Virus record (IMG/VR): IMGVR_UViG_3300031853_000003
Coordinates: 91,392-155,391 of that record
Source: a virus
Lineage: Duplodnaviria > Caudoviricetes
Length of the DNA: 64,000 nucleotides
Reading direction: 5' to 3' (one strand)
Shown: positions 6,076 through 57,013 of the stretch, in pieces
Position numbering within the stretch: position 1 is the stretch's first letter
How the letters are laid out: each line of letters begins with the position of its first letter
Position numbers and translations under genes: made by a program
The notes under the pieces: model-generated
The model's database searches: none
What the model was told of the DNA's origin: nothing
What the model saw: the letters and a program-made list of their open reading frames with translations, nothing else

Positions 6076-6498
6076 GGGCGTGCCAGGTTTCGACGGGGCG
6101 CGAGAACAAATAAGCTACGCTAGTATGCCACCGCTAAAGGGGCAACCTAAAAATAACTGACAAAGTTGTTTCTATTCACCCCGCTGCTATTGCTGCTCTT
6201 TTCGCAAGAAAGGCTGTAGCTTAATCAGCGATTTCGGGTACCAAAACGATATGGCCTGCTACTCGACGCATATCTGAGGTTCAAGGAAGTAGTAGCATCA
6301 CAGTTCGTCATCTCTGTAAAAGATGACTGGTGGAGCGATGAAACTTTTTCATCCCTAAGAGGGTAGCTGCCCTCAAGCTTCGGCTTGAACCAAACGACGT
6401 TGACAACCCGTACACAGCTTGAAATTTGTCTATGGCGTAAGAAATGCTTATTCAAGTATTCGTTTCGGACGCGGGTTCGACTCCCGCCACGTCCACCA
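6076..6498 (+). ncRNA. ssrA: tmRNA; tag ORF 6159-6224 encodes (A)DKVVSIHPAAIAALFARKAVA*
   Basis: 5' GGGCGTG..TTCGAC and 3' GCGGGTTCGACTCCCGC-CACGTCC-ACCA with the G3:U Ala identity pair; AATAACT-GAC resume context. Confidence 0.95.
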
Positions 6499-23331: not shown

Positions 23332-23799
23332 ATGTCAACACATTATTCTGCATTATGCACAACAACTATGCCGTCGTTGGTACTCCCTACAGGAGAAATA
23401 TCTGAAGAATTCGCAAGATTTCTCACCGCATTTGAAGAGTGCATCAAGTATTCTAACTGGTCAGAGCTATACAAACTGACCGACATGGCATACTACGAAG
23501 ATGAATTCTGCGACGCTATCAAGTCTATGCACGGTAAACACTGGGACGAATATCGTTCATCATCGGAAAGATGTAGAGGCCTCTCCATCACAATTGATGC
23601 TGAAAGCTTCAACGAGATCAGCAGCTGCCAGCTTGCACGTATTCATGTAATCACATACATGTTGGTTGACGGTGAGGGTGGTCCCATTACACAGCAAGAG
23701 AAAACACTGCAACGTCATCATATGGACTGGTGGTTCACATATAAACGTGATAAATTCGTTATTGTAAGTGCGATACCTGAGGTGAAGATCATAACATAA
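23332..23799 (+). CDS. Hypothetical protein
   Basis: Coupled ORF. Confidence 0.55.
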   Translation: MSTHYSALCTTTMPSLVLPTGEISEEFARFLTAFEECIKYSNWSELYKLTDMAYYEDEFCDAIKSMHGKHWDEYRSSSERCRGLSITIDAESFNEISSCQLARIHVITYMLVDGEGGPITQQEKTLQRHHMDWWFTYKRDKFVIVSAIPEVKIIT

Positions 23800-23833
23800 C
23801 TTTCACCTTGTATAACTATCCAGGTGATGTCAT

Positions 23834-24097
23834 ATGAAGATGAGAGTTGAATACGTCAAAAGACGCCCTAATCAACTTGAGGAGGGCGTTTTATACATAT
23901 GCAAAGAATGTGAAGTTGCGTTTCATCTTTGCCCGTGCGGTTGCGGTGAGGAAGTAGTAACTCCTCTAGGTAATGAAGGCTGGCAACTGTTGGAACATGA
24001 AGATGGAGTAGTATCTCTGTATCCTTCAATCGGTAACTTCTCGTTCAGATGTCAAGCACATTACTTCATCATACAAAATGAAGTAGCGTTCGTCTGA
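23834..24097 (+). CDS. DUF6527-like metal-binding protein
   Basis: HLCPCGCGE.V..PL...W......VSL.PSIGN....C..HYFI pattern. Confidence 0.8.
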   Translation: MKMRVEYVKRRPNQLEEGVLYICKECEVAFHLCPCGCGEEVVTPLGNEGWQLLEHEDGVVSLYPSIGNFSFRCQAHYFIIQNEVAFV

Positions 24098-24223
24098 TGG
24101 AGAGGAGATGAGTAGAATGAAGAAGATCCTTATCTGATGTAAACATCATAGGCCACGCGGAGTTTTGTAATCTTCTGACAGCCTCCGCATACAACAAATC
24201 AAAAATAAAGGAGTAATTCAATC

Positions 24224-24970
24224 ATGAGAAAATTAACAACCGAAATCAAAGAAACACTCAGATCAATACCAGGGCTTGTCACGACGATATTCATCTTATC
24301 TTGCGTATGTATGAATCTCCTCGCCAACAAGTCTATTTTTAATACGCAGTACCTCGCGGTTACAGCTGGTATCTTCTTCTCCTGGATCGCTTTCCTCTGC
24401 ATGGATTGCGTCTGCAAGAGATTTGGATCGCGTGCTGCGACGATTCTCAACACTACGGCAACGGTCATTGCGCTGGTTACCTCTCTGCTGTTTGCACTCA
24501 TTGTCAAAGTTCCTGGTATCTGGGCATCTGTTTTCTCTGCACCGGAAGGTACCGGCGACGCTGTAAACACAGCCCTTGACGGAACATTTTCATCAACTTG
24601 GTACATTGTTGTAGGTTCTACTATCGCACTCTTCTTAGGTGGACTTACAAACTCTATCGTCAACAAGCTGATTGGCAAGAAAGCAGACAATGGAACATTC
24701 AAAGGATTTGCGATTCGTAGCTATCTGTCTACTGCGGCTGGCCAATTTGTAGACAACATCGTGTTTGCATTCTTCGTATCTTACATGTTCTTTGGATGGA
24801 GTATCCCTCAGGTGATCGGGTGTTCATTCTTCGGAATGCTTCTTGAGCTTGTTATTGAGATCGTCTTCTCTCCCCTTGGCTATCATGTTTCCAAGAAGTG
24901 GAAAGACGAAAACGTCGGCTCAGAGTATCTGAAGAAATATGCTTCCAAGGAGACAACTAATGCAGCTTGA
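24224..24970 (+). CDS. Queuosine precursor transporter (QPTR/VUT/YhhQ family)
   Basis: N.LANK, D....FG.R.A and RSY.ST..GQ.VDN..F motifs; about 6 TM segments. Confidence 0.88.
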   Translation: MRKLTTEIKETLRSIPGLVTTIFILSCVCMNLLANKSIFNTQYLAVTAGIFFSWIAFLCMDCVCKRFGSRAATILNTTATVIALVTSLLFALIVKVPGIWASVFSAPEGTGDAVNTALDGTFSSTWYIVVGSTIALFLGGLTNSIVNKLIGKKADNGTFKGFAIRSYLSTAAGQFVDNIVFAFFVSYMFFGWSIPQVIGCSFFGMLLELVIEIVFSPLGYHVSKKWKDENVGSEYLKKYASKETTNAA

Positions 24971-26417
24971 GACCTTATCAGCTGTGCAAATCGGGGACCT
25001 CGTCAACAAAGGCGAGGTCTCGCCGGTTGAAGTTATCAGATACTTCGCACAGCGTATTGATACACTGAATCCAAAGGTAAATGCTTTCACTTACACTAAA
25101 GTCGATGAAGCAATCAAAGAAGCTGAGAAGCTTGAATTGAGAATTCTAAAAGGCGAATACGGCGGACCGTTTGCAGGTGTACCTGTAGGCTTGAAAGACT
25201 TTCTCAACTCAAAGAAAGGCTGGTCAAACACTCATGGAGGAGTACCTGCTCTCAAGGCGATTGACACCTGCAACTCCAGGTTCTACTCTGCTGCGAAGAA
25301 GTTAGGAGCGATTGCTATCGGTAAGACCAATGCCCCTCCGTTTGGATTCAAAGGTACTTGTGATAACACAATGTACGGACCTACGCACAATCCTTACAAC
25401 TTGGAATACAATTCCGGTGGATCTTCCGGAGGTACTGCAGCAGCTGTTGCAAGCGGAATGATTCCTCTAGGAGAGGGCGGAGATGCCGGTGGATCCATTC
25501 GCATACCTGCAGCTTGGTGTAACTGTTTTGGCTTCAAGGCAGGCTTAGGATCTGTTCCGAGCGTATGCAGACCAGACGGTTGGACTGCTACACATCCGTA
25601 TTGCTTCAACGGCAGCATTACTAAGACGGTTGAGGATAGTGCAATCCTCTTCGATGCTATGAATCAGTATGACCCGCGTGATCCGATCAGCTTACCATTC
25701 AAGCACACCGCTAGATTAAAGATGAGTAATCCTATACGAGGAAGGAAAGTTGTTTTCACACCTGATTTTGGAATCTTTCCAGTTGATCCAAGGATCGCTT
25801 CCCTGGTAGAGTCGGCTGCGAAAGAGTTCCGACATGCCGGTGCAATCGTGCTGAATGACGACATCCACTTCCAGCACTCGTTGGATGAACTTGCTAGATG
25901 CTGGTGTAGATCTATTTCATTAGATACTACATTAGATATCCAAGAGTGGAAACGCAATGGGTTAGATCTGATAGGCGACCATAGCGATGAACTCACTCCT
26001 GAATTCATCTATTGGTATCATAAGACTCTTGAGACAGATATCTTCGATATTCGAGAGTTCAACGAAATCCGCACTGATGTCTTAGACACATTTGAGAATG
26101 CGTTCAAAGATGCAGATATCATCATCTCTCCAGTATCAGGATGTATGCCTCTTAAGAATTCAGAGCAGACTCCTGAGGCAATCCGAAAGATTGCAGGAAC
26201 CGAGTTAAGCAAAGATACAGATTTCATATCATTTGCAATGACGTTCCCGATCAACTTCGTCGGATATCCTGCAGCATCTATTCCGATCGGGTTCATTGAC
26301 GGACTTCCTGTAGGTATGCAGATAGTTGCACGTCAGTACCATGACGCAGATGTATTCATGTTTGCTCATGCGTATGAGAAGATGCATTCGTACTATCTTA
26401 CACGCCCTACCATCTGA
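24960..26417 (+). CDS. Amidase-signature family enzyme
   Basis: GVPVGLKD, GKTN, GGSSGG, GDAGGSIRIPAAW, GLPVGMQ; Lys-Ser-Ser triad intact; overlaps the QPTR stop. Confidence 0.92.
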   Translation: MQLETLSAVQIGDLVNKGEVSPVEVIRYFAQRIDTLNPKVNAFTYTKVDEAIKEAEKLELRILKGEYGGPFAGVPVGLKDFLNSKKGWSNTHGGVPALKAIDTCNSRFYSAAKKLGAIAIGKTNAPPFGFKGTCDNTMYGPTHNPYNLEYNSGGSSGGTAAAVASGMIPLGEGGDAGGSIRIPAAWCNCFGFKAGLGSVPSVCRPDGWTATHPYCFNGSITKTVEDSAILFDAMNQYDPRDPISLPFKHTARLKMSNPIRGRKVVFTPDFGIFPVDPRIASLVESAAKEFRHAGAIVLNDDIHFQHSLDELARCWCRSISLDTTLDIQEWKRNGLDLIGDHSDELTPEFIYWYHKTLETDIFDIREFNEIRTDVLDTFENAFKDADIIISPVSGCMPLKNSEQTPEAIRKIAGTELSKDTDFISFAMTFPINFVGYPAASIPIGFIDGLPVGMQIVARQYHDADVFMFAHAYEKMHSYYLTRPTI

Positions 26418-42584: not shown

Positions 42585-43058
42585 GTGCCTAATACTAGAG
42601 TAGTACAGCGAAGTGAATTTGAGTGTGCGTATCTTATGCCGAAGGACAAGAGTAACAGAGACTATGAACTCAACGCACATTTCTACAAGATTGAAGCTAC
42701 TTTTGAAAATCGATCTGATGTAGAGGACTTTGTTCTCGATTTCAGAATCTGCAAACAGATCATGGACAGTGTGTTGCCGAATAACTGTTTCATCTATAAT
42801 GGCAGAGCAGTCACACCAAATGGTTCTGTATATACCATTGTAGAGTCTGCTGGAGAAGTAGAAGTAGCTGCTGCGATGGAGAAGGTAGGTGTTCCCGTCA
42901 AGCGATATGATTTCAAGATATCCGCGGAGACCCTCGCAGAATACTTCGCCTTGAGAATACAGCGTGAGCTCAATGCTCATGACTTAGCTAACATACAAGT
43001 ACGAGAGCTCAAGTTGCGAGAGACTGCTGATTCATTCGCCACTTGGTCACTCGTATAG
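42585..43058 (+). CDS. QueD/PTPS-like T-fold protein with degenerate metal site
   Basis: EFECAY, LNAH.YKIE, VLDF..K, SAE.LA, L.ET..S.A.W. Confidence 0.75.
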   Translation: MPNTRVVQRSEFECAYLMPKDKSNRDYELNAHFYKIEATFENRSDVEDFVLDFRICKQIMDSVLPNNCFIYNGRAVTPNGSVYTIVESAGEVEVAAAMEKVGVPVKRYDFKISAETLAEYFALRIQRELNAHDLANIQVRELKLRETADSFATWSLV

Positions 43059-52564: not shown

Positions 52565-53336
52565 GTGTCAATCATCTGCTATTGATCAACTACAGACACT
52601 GGCATCTGCGGATCGCCACAGTGTATTAGTATCAGGTATGCAGGGTAGCGGCAAATCATATCTTGCCCAAAGATATGCTGAGATGCTAGGCATAGAGGAT
52701 TTTCAGACAGTAAGTCCCTCTGTCAAATCTATCAAAGAATGTATGCAGGCCTGCTATAACATCGATACGCCTATTGTTCTATGTATAGAGAATCTAGATC
52801 AAGGAGTCAATGCAGCTGCATACTCGATACTCAAATTTCTAGAAGAGCCTATGCAACATGTATACATCGTTGTTACTTGTATCAATACAAATAACATACC
52901 TGATACTATCATCAGTCGATGTGTAGTTGTACCTTTAGGGCCTCCGACAGATAGTGACCTAGAAGCATTTGCAACTGCTGTAGATTTCACTAAGTTTCAT
53001 CCGCTCGAGAACACAGACCTTTGGAAGTGTGTTCGTACTTTCGGAGATGTAAACACTGTCTTGAATCTGTCATCATCTCAGATAGATTACTTCCGCTCCT
53101 TATCAGATATCTTGTCATTCAAAGATAATATATCAAGCTTGATGTGGAAGTTAGGCCATTATGATGATAATTCAGAAGCACCTACAGACCTTATATTAAG
53201 ATATCTCATTCATGTTTCTGATAATCCGCATGTTCGATGGGCTGGTATGGAGTGCCTTAAGAAGCTAGGTCAAGGTAGAGTAGCAGCTCATGCGGTAGTA
53301 GCAAGATTCTTGTTTGAGTGCAAGTATGGAGCGTAG
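52554..53336 (+). CDS. Clamp loader delta'-like subunit (HolB-like)
   Basis: HS.L..G..GSGKS, AA..ILKFLEEP, TIISRC. Confidence 0.82.
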   Translation: MDFKCQSSAIDQLQTLASADRHSVLVSGMQGSGKSYLAQRYAEMLGIEDFQTVSPSVKSIKECMQACYNIDTPIVLCIENLDQGVNAAAYSILKFLEEPMQHVYIVVTCINTNNIPDTIISRCVVVPLGPPTDSDLEAFATAVDFTKFHPLENTDLWKCVRTFGDVNTVLNLSSSQIDYFRSLSDILSFKDNISSLMWKLGHYDDNSEAPTDLILRYLIHVSDNPHVRWAGMECLKKLGQGRVAAHAVVARFLFECKYGA

Positions 53337-53338
53337 TT

Positions 53339-53719
53339 ATGGATGATTTAGATTTCAGAAACATTCCAGGATATTCTGGAGTATATCAGATTACTCGACA
53401 AGGCGTTATACGAAGCAACGGAAGAGACTGTGTGGTTCGCAATGTTAAACGTCGGGATGGCGCTGTTCGAGATGTTGAGATTTGGTACCGCAAGACAAAG
53501 ATACTCAAACCTATCTCTACTTTCAGCAAACCGCTTGTACATTTGCATAACACACATGGCAAACGCAAGAACTTCTATGTTGCACAGCTGGTAGCCATGT
53601 GCTATCTTACAGACGGAGAACTTGTTCCTATCAGAAAAATCGGCTATAAAGACGGAGATATACATAACGTCTCAGCTGATAATCTGATAATAAATCGTTA
53701 TAGTACTCAGGAGGAGTAA
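53339..53719 (+). CDS. NUMOD4/HNH-like endonuclease, degenerate
   Basis: IPGYSGVYQIT..G.IRS, V.QLVA, YKDGD..N...DNL (catalytic His replaced). Confidence 0.7.
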   Translation: MDDLDFRNIPGYSGVYQITRQGVIRSNGRDCVVRNVKRRDGAVRDVEIWYRKTKILKPISTFSKPLVHLHNTHGKRKNFYVAQLVAMCYLTDGELVPIRKIGYKDGDIHNVSADNLIINRYSTQEE

Positions 53720-53721
53720 CT

Positions 53722-54678
53722 ATGGTATATTATTTTTCTGGTGGACTCACTTATGAGATGGCCAACCTCTTGAAGGCGATGCCTGGATTTGAGCCCATCG
53801 ATGTTCTAGTTTCTCAGCTAGATAGATCTTCCGTTGACACTATGTTGAAGCATAAGGCCAACGGAGTCGTAAAGAGCTTGTTTATCGACAGTGGTGCATA
53901 TTCTGAGCATACTGGTAAGGGCAAGGTTGACTTAGAAGATTACATCAACTTCGTCAACTCTATCGATGAACACATTTCAGCTGTTGCACAGCTTGATACA
54001 ATTCCCGGTGAGTTCAACAAGCCGAAATCTCCAGAGGATTATGTCGAGTCTGCTGCAAAATCTTGGGAGAATTTCGAGTACATGTATGAGAAGCTGAAGT
54101 CCCCTGAGAAGCTGATTCCTGTATTTCATTTCGGAGAATCATTCAGTGTTCTCGAGAAGATGCTGTCCTGGAAAGACAAGAACGGCAAGCCGCTTACATA
54201 TGTAGGTATCTCACCTGCGAACGATTCTGCACAGAAGACCAAAAACAAATATCTACAGAACGTGTATGACGTTATCCGGGAGTCATCAAACCCAAATGTA
54301 CGTACTCACTTGTTCGGTATGACAGCACTTGATGCACTCTCCAAGTTCCCGTGCTACTCTGCAGATAGTGTTTCACATAGACTCATGGGTGCATACGGAA
54401 AGGTCCTTATCCCTGAGTTTGGCGTAATCTCTGTATCCAAGAAAACTCGTACAAGTAAGACTAAGTCCAACATGAGTTTCCTCGATACTGCGGACGATAT
54501 GGCCATGGCTCGTCTGAAAGCATATCTCGACAGCATCAACGTTACTGTAGAGGATCTCCAAGCATCTCATTCTGTCAGATGTGCTGTATCTATGTACAGT
54601 ATCATGAAGATACTTAAGGACAAGCCATACGATGCAAAGAATACAAAGCGTGTCAAGAAGCTTTTTGATTTGAGGTGA
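53722..54678 (+). CDS. TGT-fold transglycosylase (DpdA-like)
   Basis: LFIDSGAYS, QLD.IP, IPVFH.G, HLFG, YSADS.S. Confidence 0.8.
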   Translation: MVYYFSGGLTYEMANLLKAMPGFEPIDVLVSQLDRSSVDTMLKHKANGVVKSLFIDSGAYSEHTGKGKVDLEDYINFVNSIDEHISAVAQLDTIPGEFNKPKSPEDYVESAAKSWENFEYMYEKLKSPEKLIPVFHFGESFSVLEKMLSWKDKNGKPLTYVGISPANDSAQKTKNKYLQNVYDVIRESSNPNVRTHLFGMTALDALSKFPCYSADSVSHRLMGAYGKVLIPEFGVISVSKKTRTSKTKSNMSFLDTADDMAMARLKAYLDSINVTVEDLQASHSVRCAVSMYSIMKILKDKPYDAKNTKRVKKLFDLR

Positions 54679-54679
54679 T

Positions 54680-55210
54680 ATGATGCAGTCTACCGGATAC
54701 CAACCGACTAACGGTAATCTTGATTCATCGGACCTGCCTGCAGACAGCAACCGAAATGGCCCATTGAAGGATAGCGGTGCAAGACGCGAGTTCGAGACTG
54801 GAGCTGTTCGAGACATTCAGCAAGGTAAGGGTCGGTGCGATCTGCTACCACTTGCAGTAGTAGGAAGTATCGTCCAAGATGACATACTTGTTGCAATCGA
54901 CAACTTCCTTCATACAAAAGATGACAATCATCTGAAGAAGGCCATCGAGCAGTTCTGCTTCAAGGCGTATGGAGATCTAATCACAGGTTTCTTAGAAGTG
55001 GCAATCCATTATGAGCAAGGTGCAATCAAGTATGCACCGCACAACTGGGAGAAAGGCATTCCGCTCCATTGTTTTATCGACAGCGGTGTGAGACATTACC
55101 TTAAGTTTCTCAGAGGTGATACTGATGAACCACATGATCGAGCGTTTGTGTGGAACATGTTAGGAGCTATCTGGACACTTCACAACAAACCTGAGCTTGA
55201 TGACATCTAA
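54680..55210 (+). CDS. DUF5664 dATP/dGTP diphosphohydrolase
   Basis: SG.RREFETGAVRD..GKGR.DLLP, GA.KY...NWEKG, DS..RH, DE.H. Confidence 0.88.
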   Translation: MMQSTGYQPTNGNLDSSDLPADSNRNGPLKDSGARREFETGAVRDIQQGKGRCDLLPLAVVGSIVQDDILVAIDNFLHTKDDNHLKKAIEQFCFKAYGDLITGFLEVAIHYEQGAIKYAPHNWEKGIPLHCFIDSGVRHYLKFLRGDTDEPHDRAFVWNMLGAIWTLHNKPELDDI

Positions 55211-55302
55211 TATACAATATACATATCAGTGTAGTGAGGTTGACAAAACACCATTGTCAACCTTTTATACTTTCGTATAACACTATCGCTGAGGTGAAAA
55301 CT

Positions 55303-55964
55303 ATGGCACTGATTTCCCCAAACGACATGACGTTACTGCATAATGCGTCAGAAGTAGCAGCTGTAGCAGCATCTGCAGATCTCGAACACGAAATGATGAT
55401 CATTGCAAGCGTAATCAATACTGCTGCTAACACAGGTGCATACCAGGCAGGATACAACAAGCCCATCAGTGACGCTGCAAAGACAAAGCTGGAAGATGCT
55501 GGGTATGAAGTGATCGCTAACAACATCGCCGCTGTACCTGACCAGAATTATATTATCAGGTGGTCTGAGTAATGATACAGTTACCTGTATGCAAAGTTGA
55601 ATCGTGTGCTTTCAACGAACTCCCGATGCACACTCCGGTGTGGAACAGTAAGACTGTTGAAGAGCATATCTGGATCCATGTATTCCCTGAGATAACGCAG
55701 TCTGCAGAAGTATGTGGACTTCAATGTATGGAGAATAAGTCCTTCGTAGACGTGGAATACACAGGACATATGTCTCAGGATGCTTGCAAGCCCTGGTTTC
55801 GCATTGATAAGGATATACTGTCGATGGATCCAGGTCTGCACATCTACAGGCTCAAGTTCGTAACTACTATATCTCCGCTACCATTTTCAGTTTACTTTGC
55901 ATACATCATCCAAGAAGATGATCCTGAAAAGCCTTATATATACATGAATAGGAGTGATAGCTGA
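55303..55964 (+). CDS. Two late hypothetical genes (55303-55572, 55572-55964)
   Basis: GAGGTG RBS, TAATG coupling, downstream of an ACCTT motif. Confidence 0.6.
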
Positions 55965-57013
55965 TGGTTGAAGTATTTTCAGACTTGAAATACTATAATG
56001 CTAATGCCAACGGCAAGAATCACCCTGATTGCACACGTAGATCAATATCACTTGCATATGGTAGGCCTTATGAACAAGTAGCACTTGATTCCAGGCGTAT
56101 CGCAAGTCGTATGGGTACAACTTATCAAGACGACCGTGTCATGCATAGACTGCTTAAACAGTACGGATACGAGTGGCAAGTAAGGTATAAGGTTCTTGGA
56201 TTCACTAGTATGCCTACAGTAGCTGAGTTTGCAGAGGAATACTCCGTTGGTACGTACGTAGTCCATTGTGTGAATCCGAAGAATCCTAAATCACTTACAC
56301 AACACGCAGTCGCTGTTATAGACGGTACAGTATATGATAGTTGGGACAGTCAAGGTTGGTTATGTGATGAAGTCACATGCGTATCTGAGTCAGAATCTGA
56401 TGCTTTTCCGGAATCAGATATCAATGAGATGATATCTGAGCTGAATGATAAGTTACTTCCTTGGATACAGAGATATGCGAGGAAGAAGATACCTGATATT
56501 GAAGTAACAATATCAACTGAATGTTGGGACGAGTATTCAGGTCACATATATGTTTATCTGCAGTATCCGGATTGGTTAGTAGAAGGTCCTCCGAAGCTGA
56601 GGGGTAACAGAAGTCGCAAGCGATTCAGTGTCAAGATAAGCCCTACTGTAACATATGAGAACAACTATCAGGCCAACTATAAAAGACTTCAGCAGCAGAT
56701 AAGAGATTATCTTTGGGAGGCATTAGGTACTCTCATGGATGTTTACAACTCTTACAAGCTCGATGTAAATAAATCCTTCTGGGGAGATCGTAGACTGCTT
56801 GCGAAGATACCTAAATGGGCAGTTCCCTATGTTTGGCAGTTATGGCACAACACAGAGAGTTGGGCTGACTATCCATACTCCATATCAATGACTCCGCTAG
56901 AAGGCGACAATTTTAACAAGAACATGGTCAGCTTCTACGCAAATAGCATTAAAGATCTAAATGCTCAGTTAGAGGAGTACCGAGCTGATTGTGAAGAATC
57001 TGACGAGGGGTGA
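55964..57013 (+). CDS. Protein with papain-like peptidase-type N-terminal domain
   Basis: DC..R.IS.A and H.VAV.DG..YDSWD Cys/His/Asp pattern. Confidence 0.6.
   Translation: MVEVFSDLKYYNANANGKNHPDCTRRSISLAYGRPYEQVALDSRRIASRMGTTYQDDRVMHRLLKQYGYEWQVRYKVLGFTSMPTVAEFAEEYSVGTYVVHCVNPKNPKSLTQHAVAVIDGTVYDSWDSQGWLCDEVTCVSESESDAFPESDINEMISELNDKLLPWIQRYARKKIPDIEVTISTECWDEYSGHIYVYLQYPDWLVEGPPKLRGNRSRKRFSVKISPTVTYENNYQANYKRLQQQIRDYLWEALGTLMDVYNSYKLDVNKSFWGDRRLLAKIPKWAVPYVWQLWHNTESWADYPYSISMTPLEGDNFNKNMVSFYANSIKDLNAQLEEYRADCEESDEG

Follow-up and report, generated by a model that had tools for sequence, protein, structure and literature searches.

Modification of DNA with 7-deazaguanines by DpdA is an established anti-restriction strategy. 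In Streptococcus phage Dp-1, whose DpdA is Gp7 and whose own QueF-QueC-QueD-QueE-FolE-QueT set makes preQ1, dPreQ1 amounts to ~1.7% of G in the DNA and there is no dG+ (Hutinet et al. 2019, PMC6884629). Bacillus phage Flasso also encodes a full preQ1 pathway (QueC, QueD, QueE, FolE and QueF), and we found no report of its DNA chemistry. The DpdA1 enzymes of 9g, Iggy and CAjan belong to preQ0/G+ phages without QueF, and the 'DpdA-only' phages (group 3 of Hutinet et al.) have DpdA without the preQ0 synthesis genes; use of host preQ0 or uptake has already been proposed for the latter, and YhhQ homologues are present in some phages (Hutinet et al. 2019). Here we describe dpdA and its downstream neighbour, which make up positions 53722-55210 of the window (the whole stretch of DNA that was analysed, 64 kb, being the final part of the 155,391-bp complete virus record IMGVR_UViG_3300031853_000003). 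The DpdA is of the Dp-1/Flasso type, and its genome belongs to the 'DpdA-only plus YhhQ' class recognised since 2019; as the strategy is established, the gene adds a member and not a mechanism. What can be added is a likely identity for the base, preQ1, and a likely route for its supply. The stretch holds exactly two open reading frames (ORFs), both on the plus strand:

53722-54678, plus strand: dpdA, for a predicted DNA guanine/7-deazaguanine transglycosylase of 318 amino acids (aa) on the Dp-1/Flasso branch (PHROG 887, hhalign, AlphaFold2 model, tree).
54680-55210, plus strand: gene for a DUF5664 (PF18909, dGTP_diPhyd_N) protein of 176 aa, a putative deoxynucleoside triphosphate (dNTP) diphosphohydrolase (PF18909, phrog_18716).

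The product of dpdA matches PHROG 887, 'queuine tRNA-ribosyltransferase' (E 1.4e-44), and matches no Pfam family at E ≤ 0.1, the tRNA-guanine transglycosylase (TGT) profile PF01702 included. A tblastn search with this protein matched 175 phage records that carry the annotation queuine/queuosine tRNA-ribosyltransferase or DpdA, with the best matches in Flasso (48% identical across residues 43-236, E 1e-49) and Dp-1 (41.7%, E 2e-48) and a more distant one in Iggy (E 4e-13), and more than 580 homologues of ~317 aa were seen in metagenomes. When the profile of the DpdA family was compared with 9g DpdA by hhalign, the two aligned motif for motif over 212 columns (probability 99.1, E 1.1e-18). The same comparison with E. 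coli TGT was not significant (probability 0.2), with the DSG motif alone aligned, and sequence and profile searches against the sequences of the PDB gave chance matches only.

The original prediction of a DpdA/TGT-like transglycosylase with intact catalytic motifs (DSG, D, H.FG and DS) is borne out: the motifs are present as D56-S57-G58, D92, H196-L-F-G199 and D215-S216, and are the same in Dp-1, Flasso, 9g and Iggy, save that Dp-1 has Ser for G58. In an alignment of 24 family sequences, the invariant positions are D56-S57-G58, D92, H136/G138/E139, D168, H196/G199 and D215-S216...H219-R220, and five of them (D56, D92, H136, H196 and D215) are shared with Dp-1, Flasso, 9g, Iggy and the relatives, whether or not these have que genes. 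H196 aligns with the His in the 9g segment 'KVHGFGIT', and it is the His at 9g position 196 that separates DpdA from DpdA2, which does not have it (PMC6884629). DpdA2, DpdA3 and DpdA4 were considered from published descriptions together with the 9g alignment: a PSI-BLAST search started from 9g DpdA does not reach DpdA2 (PMC6884629), and DpdA3, a distant TGT/DpdA homologue, and DpdA4 were found via HHpred (2023 paper).

The AlphaFold2 model of DpdA (pLDDT 88.3, pTM 0.86) leads to the same superfamily. All top Foldseek matches are TGTs (E 3e-9), and the five top structural matches in VIA belong to the TGT superfamily, namely ArcTGT 1iq8 (Z 18.8) and DpdA 7ui4 (Z 18.6), then QTRT2, bacterial TGT and Cap10, while generic TIM barrels score Z ≤ 14.2. 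The alignment with 7ui4, the DNA preQ0 insertase DpdA of Salmonella Montevideo (bDpdA), covers 276 residues with a root-mean-square deviation of 3.8. The active site of bDpdA is made of D95, D130, H181 and D256, two of which are proven essential by mutagenesis (PMC10164549), and, judging by spacing, the catalytic Asp/Asp/His/Asp positions of the phage enzyme would correspond to these four. At the same time, bDpdA is longer (413 aa vs 318), needs the DpdB ATPase, and has a Zn site and the Ins8 insertion, both of which are missing here. Where E. coli TGT has CDCYTC at 302-307 as part of its Zn motif, CxCxxC...H, the phage protein lacks the motif altogether and contains two Cys only, neither of them conserved among the 24 sequences. 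The ORF at 53722-54678 is a DpdA-type DNA guanine transglycosylase, with DNA as its predicted target.

In a maximum-likelihood tree, this DpdA falls within a well-supported clade of large phages (95/100), sister to the Dp-1/Flasso group, and the two together are split (100/99) from a group with 9g, Iggy, Seuratvirus, V07 and Nadezda. The original prediction had proposed a profile-based placement among the DpdA subfamilies; the tree puts the enzyme on the Dp-1/Flasso branch, and the hhalign match to 9g together with H196 fits a DpdA1-type protein. Homology to the DpdA1 enzymes of 9g, Iggy and CAjan extends to all catalytic residues, His196 included, but these enzymes form their separate clade and have GG(L/M)VG where this phage and Dp-1/Flasso have SPAND.

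This segment is of interest with respect to the inserted base. Residues 162-169 (window 54205-54228) read GISPANDS, the same octapeptide as in Dp-1, and Flasso shares the SPAND signature. Among small loci with visible que genes, surveyed over flanks of ±10 kb, QueC and QueF are both present in seven of seven with G(I/V)SPAND, while QueC without QueF is found in twelve of twelve with GGMVG; three preQ0/G+ phages, 9g, Iggy and Greed, carry GG(L/M)VG as well. SPAND versus GGMVG is, on this comparison, a candidate predictor of the inserted base. By spacing, the site matches GGLAVGE of E. coli TGT (70 residues from D92 to G162 here and 70 from D143 to G213 in TGT), a segment that lines the 7-substituent pocket in TGT structures; mapped by this spacing alone, the SPAND segment is predicted to sit at that pocket, which we treat as a lead.

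For 29 large relatives, the complete records were screened for que, yhhQ, amidase, QueD-like and DUF5664 genes. Both QueC and QueF are present in 23 of the 29, and the only relative examined in detail (G008, locus L081) has the order YhhQ-SDR-QueF-(HNH)-QueC-QueD-QueE-FolE, a complete preQ1 pathway. QueF is encoded by Dp-1, Flasso and phi47:1 as well. Because Dp-1, with dPreQ1 in its DNA, has the closest characterised DpdA (in a sister branch, with the same catalytic residues), because GISPANDS is common to both and linked to QueF, and because QueC and QueF are so frequent among the large relatives, the inserted base is most likely preQ1. The original prediction held that the base could not be inferred from known gene sets; the comparative evidence points to preQ1 instead. 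The replication genes of Dp-1 are related to those of this phage (PolA ~35% identical), and Flasso, the top-scoring cultured DpdA homologue, has the same type of replication module.

Dp-1 makes its preQ1, whereas the 155-kb genome studied here (that of Dp-1 has 56 kb) does not appear to. A search of the complete genome gave no match to FolE, QueC or radical-SAM (QueE) proteins, and no QueF was seen in it, a family-aimed QueF search not having been made there. Dp-1 also codes for a precursor transporter, QueT, beside its pathway; in the present genome the transporter is a different one, with an amidase attached:

24224-24970, plus strand: YhhQ/Vut_1 queuosine-precursor transporter (PF02592, 82 bits against a cut-off of 27.2; TIGR00697, 57.1 against 50.95).
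24939-26417, plus strand: amidase-signature enzyme, its gene overlapping the end of yhhQ (PF01425, E 3e-83; no NCBIfam equivalog reached).

The transporter and the amidase named in the original prediction are thus both real. Six relatives are also without QueC and QueF, and in all six DpdA is full length with its catalytic residues intact. YhhQ is present in 25 of the 29 relatives, and it is at least 58% identical to the protein of this phage in five of the six lacking QueC and QueF (the exception, G009, has 44%), while pathway-bearing relatives have a variant that is at most 47% identical to it. Seven of the 29 relatives have the amidase, six of these with a yhhQ match at most 5 kb away, and genomes devoid of QueC and QueF are enriched for it (5/7 vs 3/23, Fisher p = 0.0067, uncorrected for phylogeny). 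This distribution of genes argues for loss of the synthesis module, with a transporter-amidase cassette now in its place. The DpdA-only phages described earlier likewise have DpdA without synthesis genes, but they form their own, host-specific DpdA clusters, while here the pattern suggests recent loss within a preQ1-making clade, with yhhQ-amidase as the substitute.

An adjacent yhhQ-amidase pair is also present on two contigs of metagenome-assembled genomes, from a Eubacterium sp. (L095:4259-6461) and a roe-deer omasum Bacilli bacterium (L096:3132-5463), in chromosomes of gut and rumen Firmicutes. Its neighbours on these contigs are ordinary chromosomal genes (FtsW, GAPDH, a cysteine-synthase-type PALP gene and Wzz), which argues that yhhQ-amidase is a bacterial cassette acquired by phages; the search of genome contigs with the amidase gave three loci, too few to gauge how frequent the pair is in bacteria or to name a host. 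A short-chain dehydrogenase (SDR) gene follows yhhQ in the que module of G008 (L081:3771-4439), and an SDR gene of the same Pfam families lies near the bacterial pair (L095:2273-2971). Our literature search found no paper linking an amidase to salvage of queuosine precursors.

One further gene has a bearing on the lost pathway:

42585-43058, plus strand: QueD/PTPS-like T-fold paralogue (PF01242, E 9e-9).

Compared with three true QueDs, its product has CAY and NAH for AAH and HGH and lacks the Zn-binding His residues and the catalytic Cys, and it scores 21 bits with TIGR03367 against a cut-off of 89. Judged from these residues, the protein is catalytically dead, in keeping with the 'dead QueD' of the original prediction, but it is a separate paralogue and not a decayed remnant of the pathway: the gene, adjoining those for SSB and polymerase, is kept in 22 of the 29 relatives, and in G008 it is kept alongside a true QueD elsewhere in the genome. 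It may code for a ligand binder or an accessory protein.

We consider it probable that DpdA writes salvaged preQ1 into the phage DNA and so protects it from restriction. DpdA would remove guanine from the DNA after replication and insert free 7-deazaguanine, by analogy with TGT and bDpdA through double displacement, with Asp215 as the nucleophile and Asp56 as the general acid/base. As no synthesis genes were seen, preQ1 would be drawn from the host pool or imported via YhhQ, possibly with processing by the adjoining amidase. DNA modified in this way would be shielded from restriction enzymes, and the co-transcribed DUF5664 protein would act on the nucleotide pool without being obligatory for DpdA. 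Several points weigh against this scheme. The DNA may be unmodified, or modified in traces; among the DpdA-only phages tested, no modification was detected in Orion and a trace in 7-11 (PMC6884629). The amidase could also act on the imported base and yield a product that is not preQ1. The mapping of SPAND to the TGT pocket uses spacing, in the face of the non-significant hhalign comparison with E. coli TGT, and the link between SPAND and QueF is a correlation among related sequences within the flanks surveyed. In addition, searches for a preQ1 riboswitch upstream of yhhQ came up empty across the window at gathering scores and in 23750-24300 at E ≤ 10, and so did those in five related que/yhhQ loci and on the two bacterial contigs.

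Alternatively, DpdA might act on DNA with another base, such as host preQ0, a product of the amidase (carboxy- or amido-7-deazaguanine) or an undescribed derivative, in which case the 'unknown base' of the original prediction would be correct. With no QueF seen (subject to the limit on that search given above), host preQ0 would not be reducible by the phage itself; the amidase always lies in or near a deazaguanine module and shows the enrichment described; and dADG and dCDG are known from other phages (PMC10516641). We nevertheless think another base unlikely, given that Dp-1 has the very same GISPANDS and that this signature goes with QueF rather than with QueC alone, that the amidase is missing from 22 of the 29 relatives with the same DpdA type and is therefore dispensable for DpdA, and that the yhhQ-amidase pair also sits in bacterial chromosomes, where a precursor of the tRNA pathway is the expected product.

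A different kind of doubt concerns whether the enzyme modifies DNA at all. The gene could be kept in a genome that in most circumstances is effectively unmodified, because there is little substrate or because it has been drifting since the que genes were lost; the results for Orion and 7-11 agree with this, as does the DpdA branch, with a length of 0.35 vs ~0.07 for its two nearest relatives. Such disuse would be hard to reconcile with catalytic and family-invariant residues that are all intact, with full-length DpdA in seven of seven genomes without QueC and QueF (six of the seven with a highly similar YhhQ), and with a conserved position of dpdA behind a conserved upstream motif, and we give it a small chance. 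Smaller still is the chance that the protein is a tRNA-guanine transglycosylase whose substrates are host GUN tRNAs and whose role is to tune translation in the infected cell. The TGT fold would suit that role, and annotators routinely call the family 'queuine tRNA-ribosyltransferase', but the protein has no Pfam TGT match and no zinc motif, its significant similarity is to the DNA-modifying DpdAs of 9g, Iggy and Dp-1 and not to E. coli TGT, and dpdA lies within the replisome operon in all relatives. The original prediction had added that no tRNA in the window has a GUN anticodon. This is true, as the six tRNAs of the whole genome (anticodons TTG, CAT, TAG, TTC, TGG and GGA) are all in the window; as evidence for a DNA target it says little, since a tRNA enzyme would act on the tRNAs of the host.

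The second gene of the stretch was predicted to be a purine-dNTP diphosphohydrolase coupled to dpdA, and this stands in part. The match to PF18909 scores 50.7 bits against a gathering cut-off of 27 (residues 104-175, profile positions 22-98 of 99), and that to phrog_18716 has E 1.9e-43. The TGA stop codon of dpdA is at 54676-54678, the ATG of the DUF5664 gene follows 1 nt on, and its ribosome-binding site lies within the end of dpdA; the two genes are read as translationally coupled. The gene is evidently under selection, since 32 columns are invariant in 15 homologues of the clade, among them D31, R35, GAVR 41-44, GRCDL 51-55, K117, Y118, N122, W123, D134, S135, R138, H139, D149, E150, H152, W158 and N159. 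In the structural model, residues 46-176 form a helical bundle (pLDDT >85), while residues 1-45, which include the conserved N-terminal motif, are unconfident. Foldseek found nothing for this model in the PDB at E ≤ 0.001, searches against PDB sequences gave chance matches only, and the best match across VIA (2p06_B, Z 5.5 over 73 aligned residues) is too weak for assigning a fold such as that of the all-alpha NTP pyrophosphatases (MazG-like).

The stand-alone DUF5664 protein of Arthrobacter phage Wayne is a dNTP diphosphohydrolase that converts dATP > dUTP > dGTP to dNMP and PPi (PMC12884076). It and the DUF5664-DUF550 fusion of Acinetobacter phage SH-Ab 15497 belong to the same Pfam family as the protein described here and are 29-37% identical to it over the C-terminal 70-120 residues. 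These enzymes, however, remove dATP/dGTP for 2-aminoadenine (Z) genomes (PMC12884076), while the neighbour here is DpdA; no sign of a Z genome was seen, purZ not having been searched for. As to a conserved functional unit with DpdA, DUF5664 is found in 16 of the 29 relatives, always within ~9 kb of dpdA and often with an HNH gene or insertions in between, directly beside it in about five, and its occurrence is indifferent to the presence of que genes. Among cultured phages, its nearest homologues come from those of Bacillus, Faecalibacterium and Arthrobacter, groups that are not prominent among the DpdA matches. A role as dedicated partner of DpdA was rejected, DUF5664 being absent from 13 of the 29 relatives and common in phages without a DpdA match. 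In our reading, the protein is a replication-module enzyme acting on the nucleotide pool and, going by its distribution, an optional neighbour of DpdA.

The genome as a whole is 90% coding, and the assembly is closed, as indicated by a 127-bp terminal repeat. The region 53000-56000 has no megablast match in a set of 50,697 phage records. We infer a Firmicute host, on account of strong Shine-Dalgarno sites and of the nearest polymerase relatives. Upstream of dpdA lie, in order, genes for RecA and a Holliday-junction resolvase, two genes for the clamp loader, and an HNH/NUMOD4 gene. Apart from the last, this order is common to ~45 related large-phage loci, in which dpdA invariably comes directly after the clamp-loader genes. 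The surroundings of the pair contain three further features:

53318-53719, plus strand: HNH/NUMOD4 homing-endonuclease-like gene between the clamp-loader gene and dpdA (PHROG 959, E 1.8e-10; weak NUMOD4 match).
53695-53700, plus strand: TCGTTA upstream motif, in the 3'-terminal part of the HNH ORF and 27 nt before the ATG of dpdA (top upstream 6-mer).
55236-55264, plus strand: terminator-like hairpin with an 11-bp stem and a T-rich tail, closing the two-gene unit (pattern match only).

In relatives, the HNH homologue is on the opposite side of dpdA (loci L006, L007, L010, L012 and L019, near 10975), and mobile endonucleases appear to target the dpdA/que module repeatedly. In L081, another HNH gene separates queF from queC.

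The TCGTTA in front of dpdA had been called a promoter. It is a genuine recurring upstream motif, and its promoter function is deduced from position. The total of 30 copies in the window shows no excess over the 28.8 expected by chance, but the copies are biased to the plus strand (27 of 30 in the window, 57 of 74 in the genome), with about half intergenic, and TCGTTA is the commonest 6-mer at -60 to -10 of plus-strand genes, where 19 of the 57 copies fall vs 3.3 ± 1.7 at random. Of 47 related loci, 12 also have it ahead of dpdA, amid otherwise divergent sequence. This distribution makes it likely that TCGTTA is a phage-specific promoter element. Copies in the form (A)ATCGTTA(A/T) are found at, for example, window positions 1405, 8788, 12582, 22858, 42554, 43067, 49938 and 53695.

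The cluster of six tRNAs adjoins a phage-encoded transfer-messenger RNA gene (window 6076-6498; Rfam RF00023, 72.4 bits; ARAGORN tag peptide DKVVSIHPAAIAALFARKAVA). In the relative G012, a GUA tRNA (tRNA-Tyr type, a queuosine substrate) lies just downstream of the que/yhhQ/amidase module (L083:10677-10749).

What is new here is the evidence that the base is predictable, as preQ1, that DpdA carries a candidate specificity signature, that a synthesis module appears to have been lost with a cassette in its place, and that DUF5664 is optional. If the SPAND/GGMVG marker holds, preQ1 versus preQ0 would be readable from the DpdA sequence alone, including for 'DpdA-only' phages. One may go further, tentatively and with a scheme that as a whole we think rather doubtful, and propose that the clade repeatedly trades its preQ1 module for the yhhQ-amidase cassette, that the amidase frees preQ1 from an amide-linked (N-acylated) 7-deazaguanine brought in by YhhQ, that the SPAND-type DpdA writes this base, and that DUF5664 bars stray deazapurine or purine dNTPs from replication; if true, release of preQ1 by an amidase would be a salvage step undescribed for either tRNA queuosine or DNA modification. 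Apart from this scheme, the genome shows a large gut/rumen phage lineage that retains DpdA after losing every synthesis gene (QueF was not family-searched in this genome), and it is a natural setting in which to study salvage-dependent DNA modification and the yhhQ-amidase pair.

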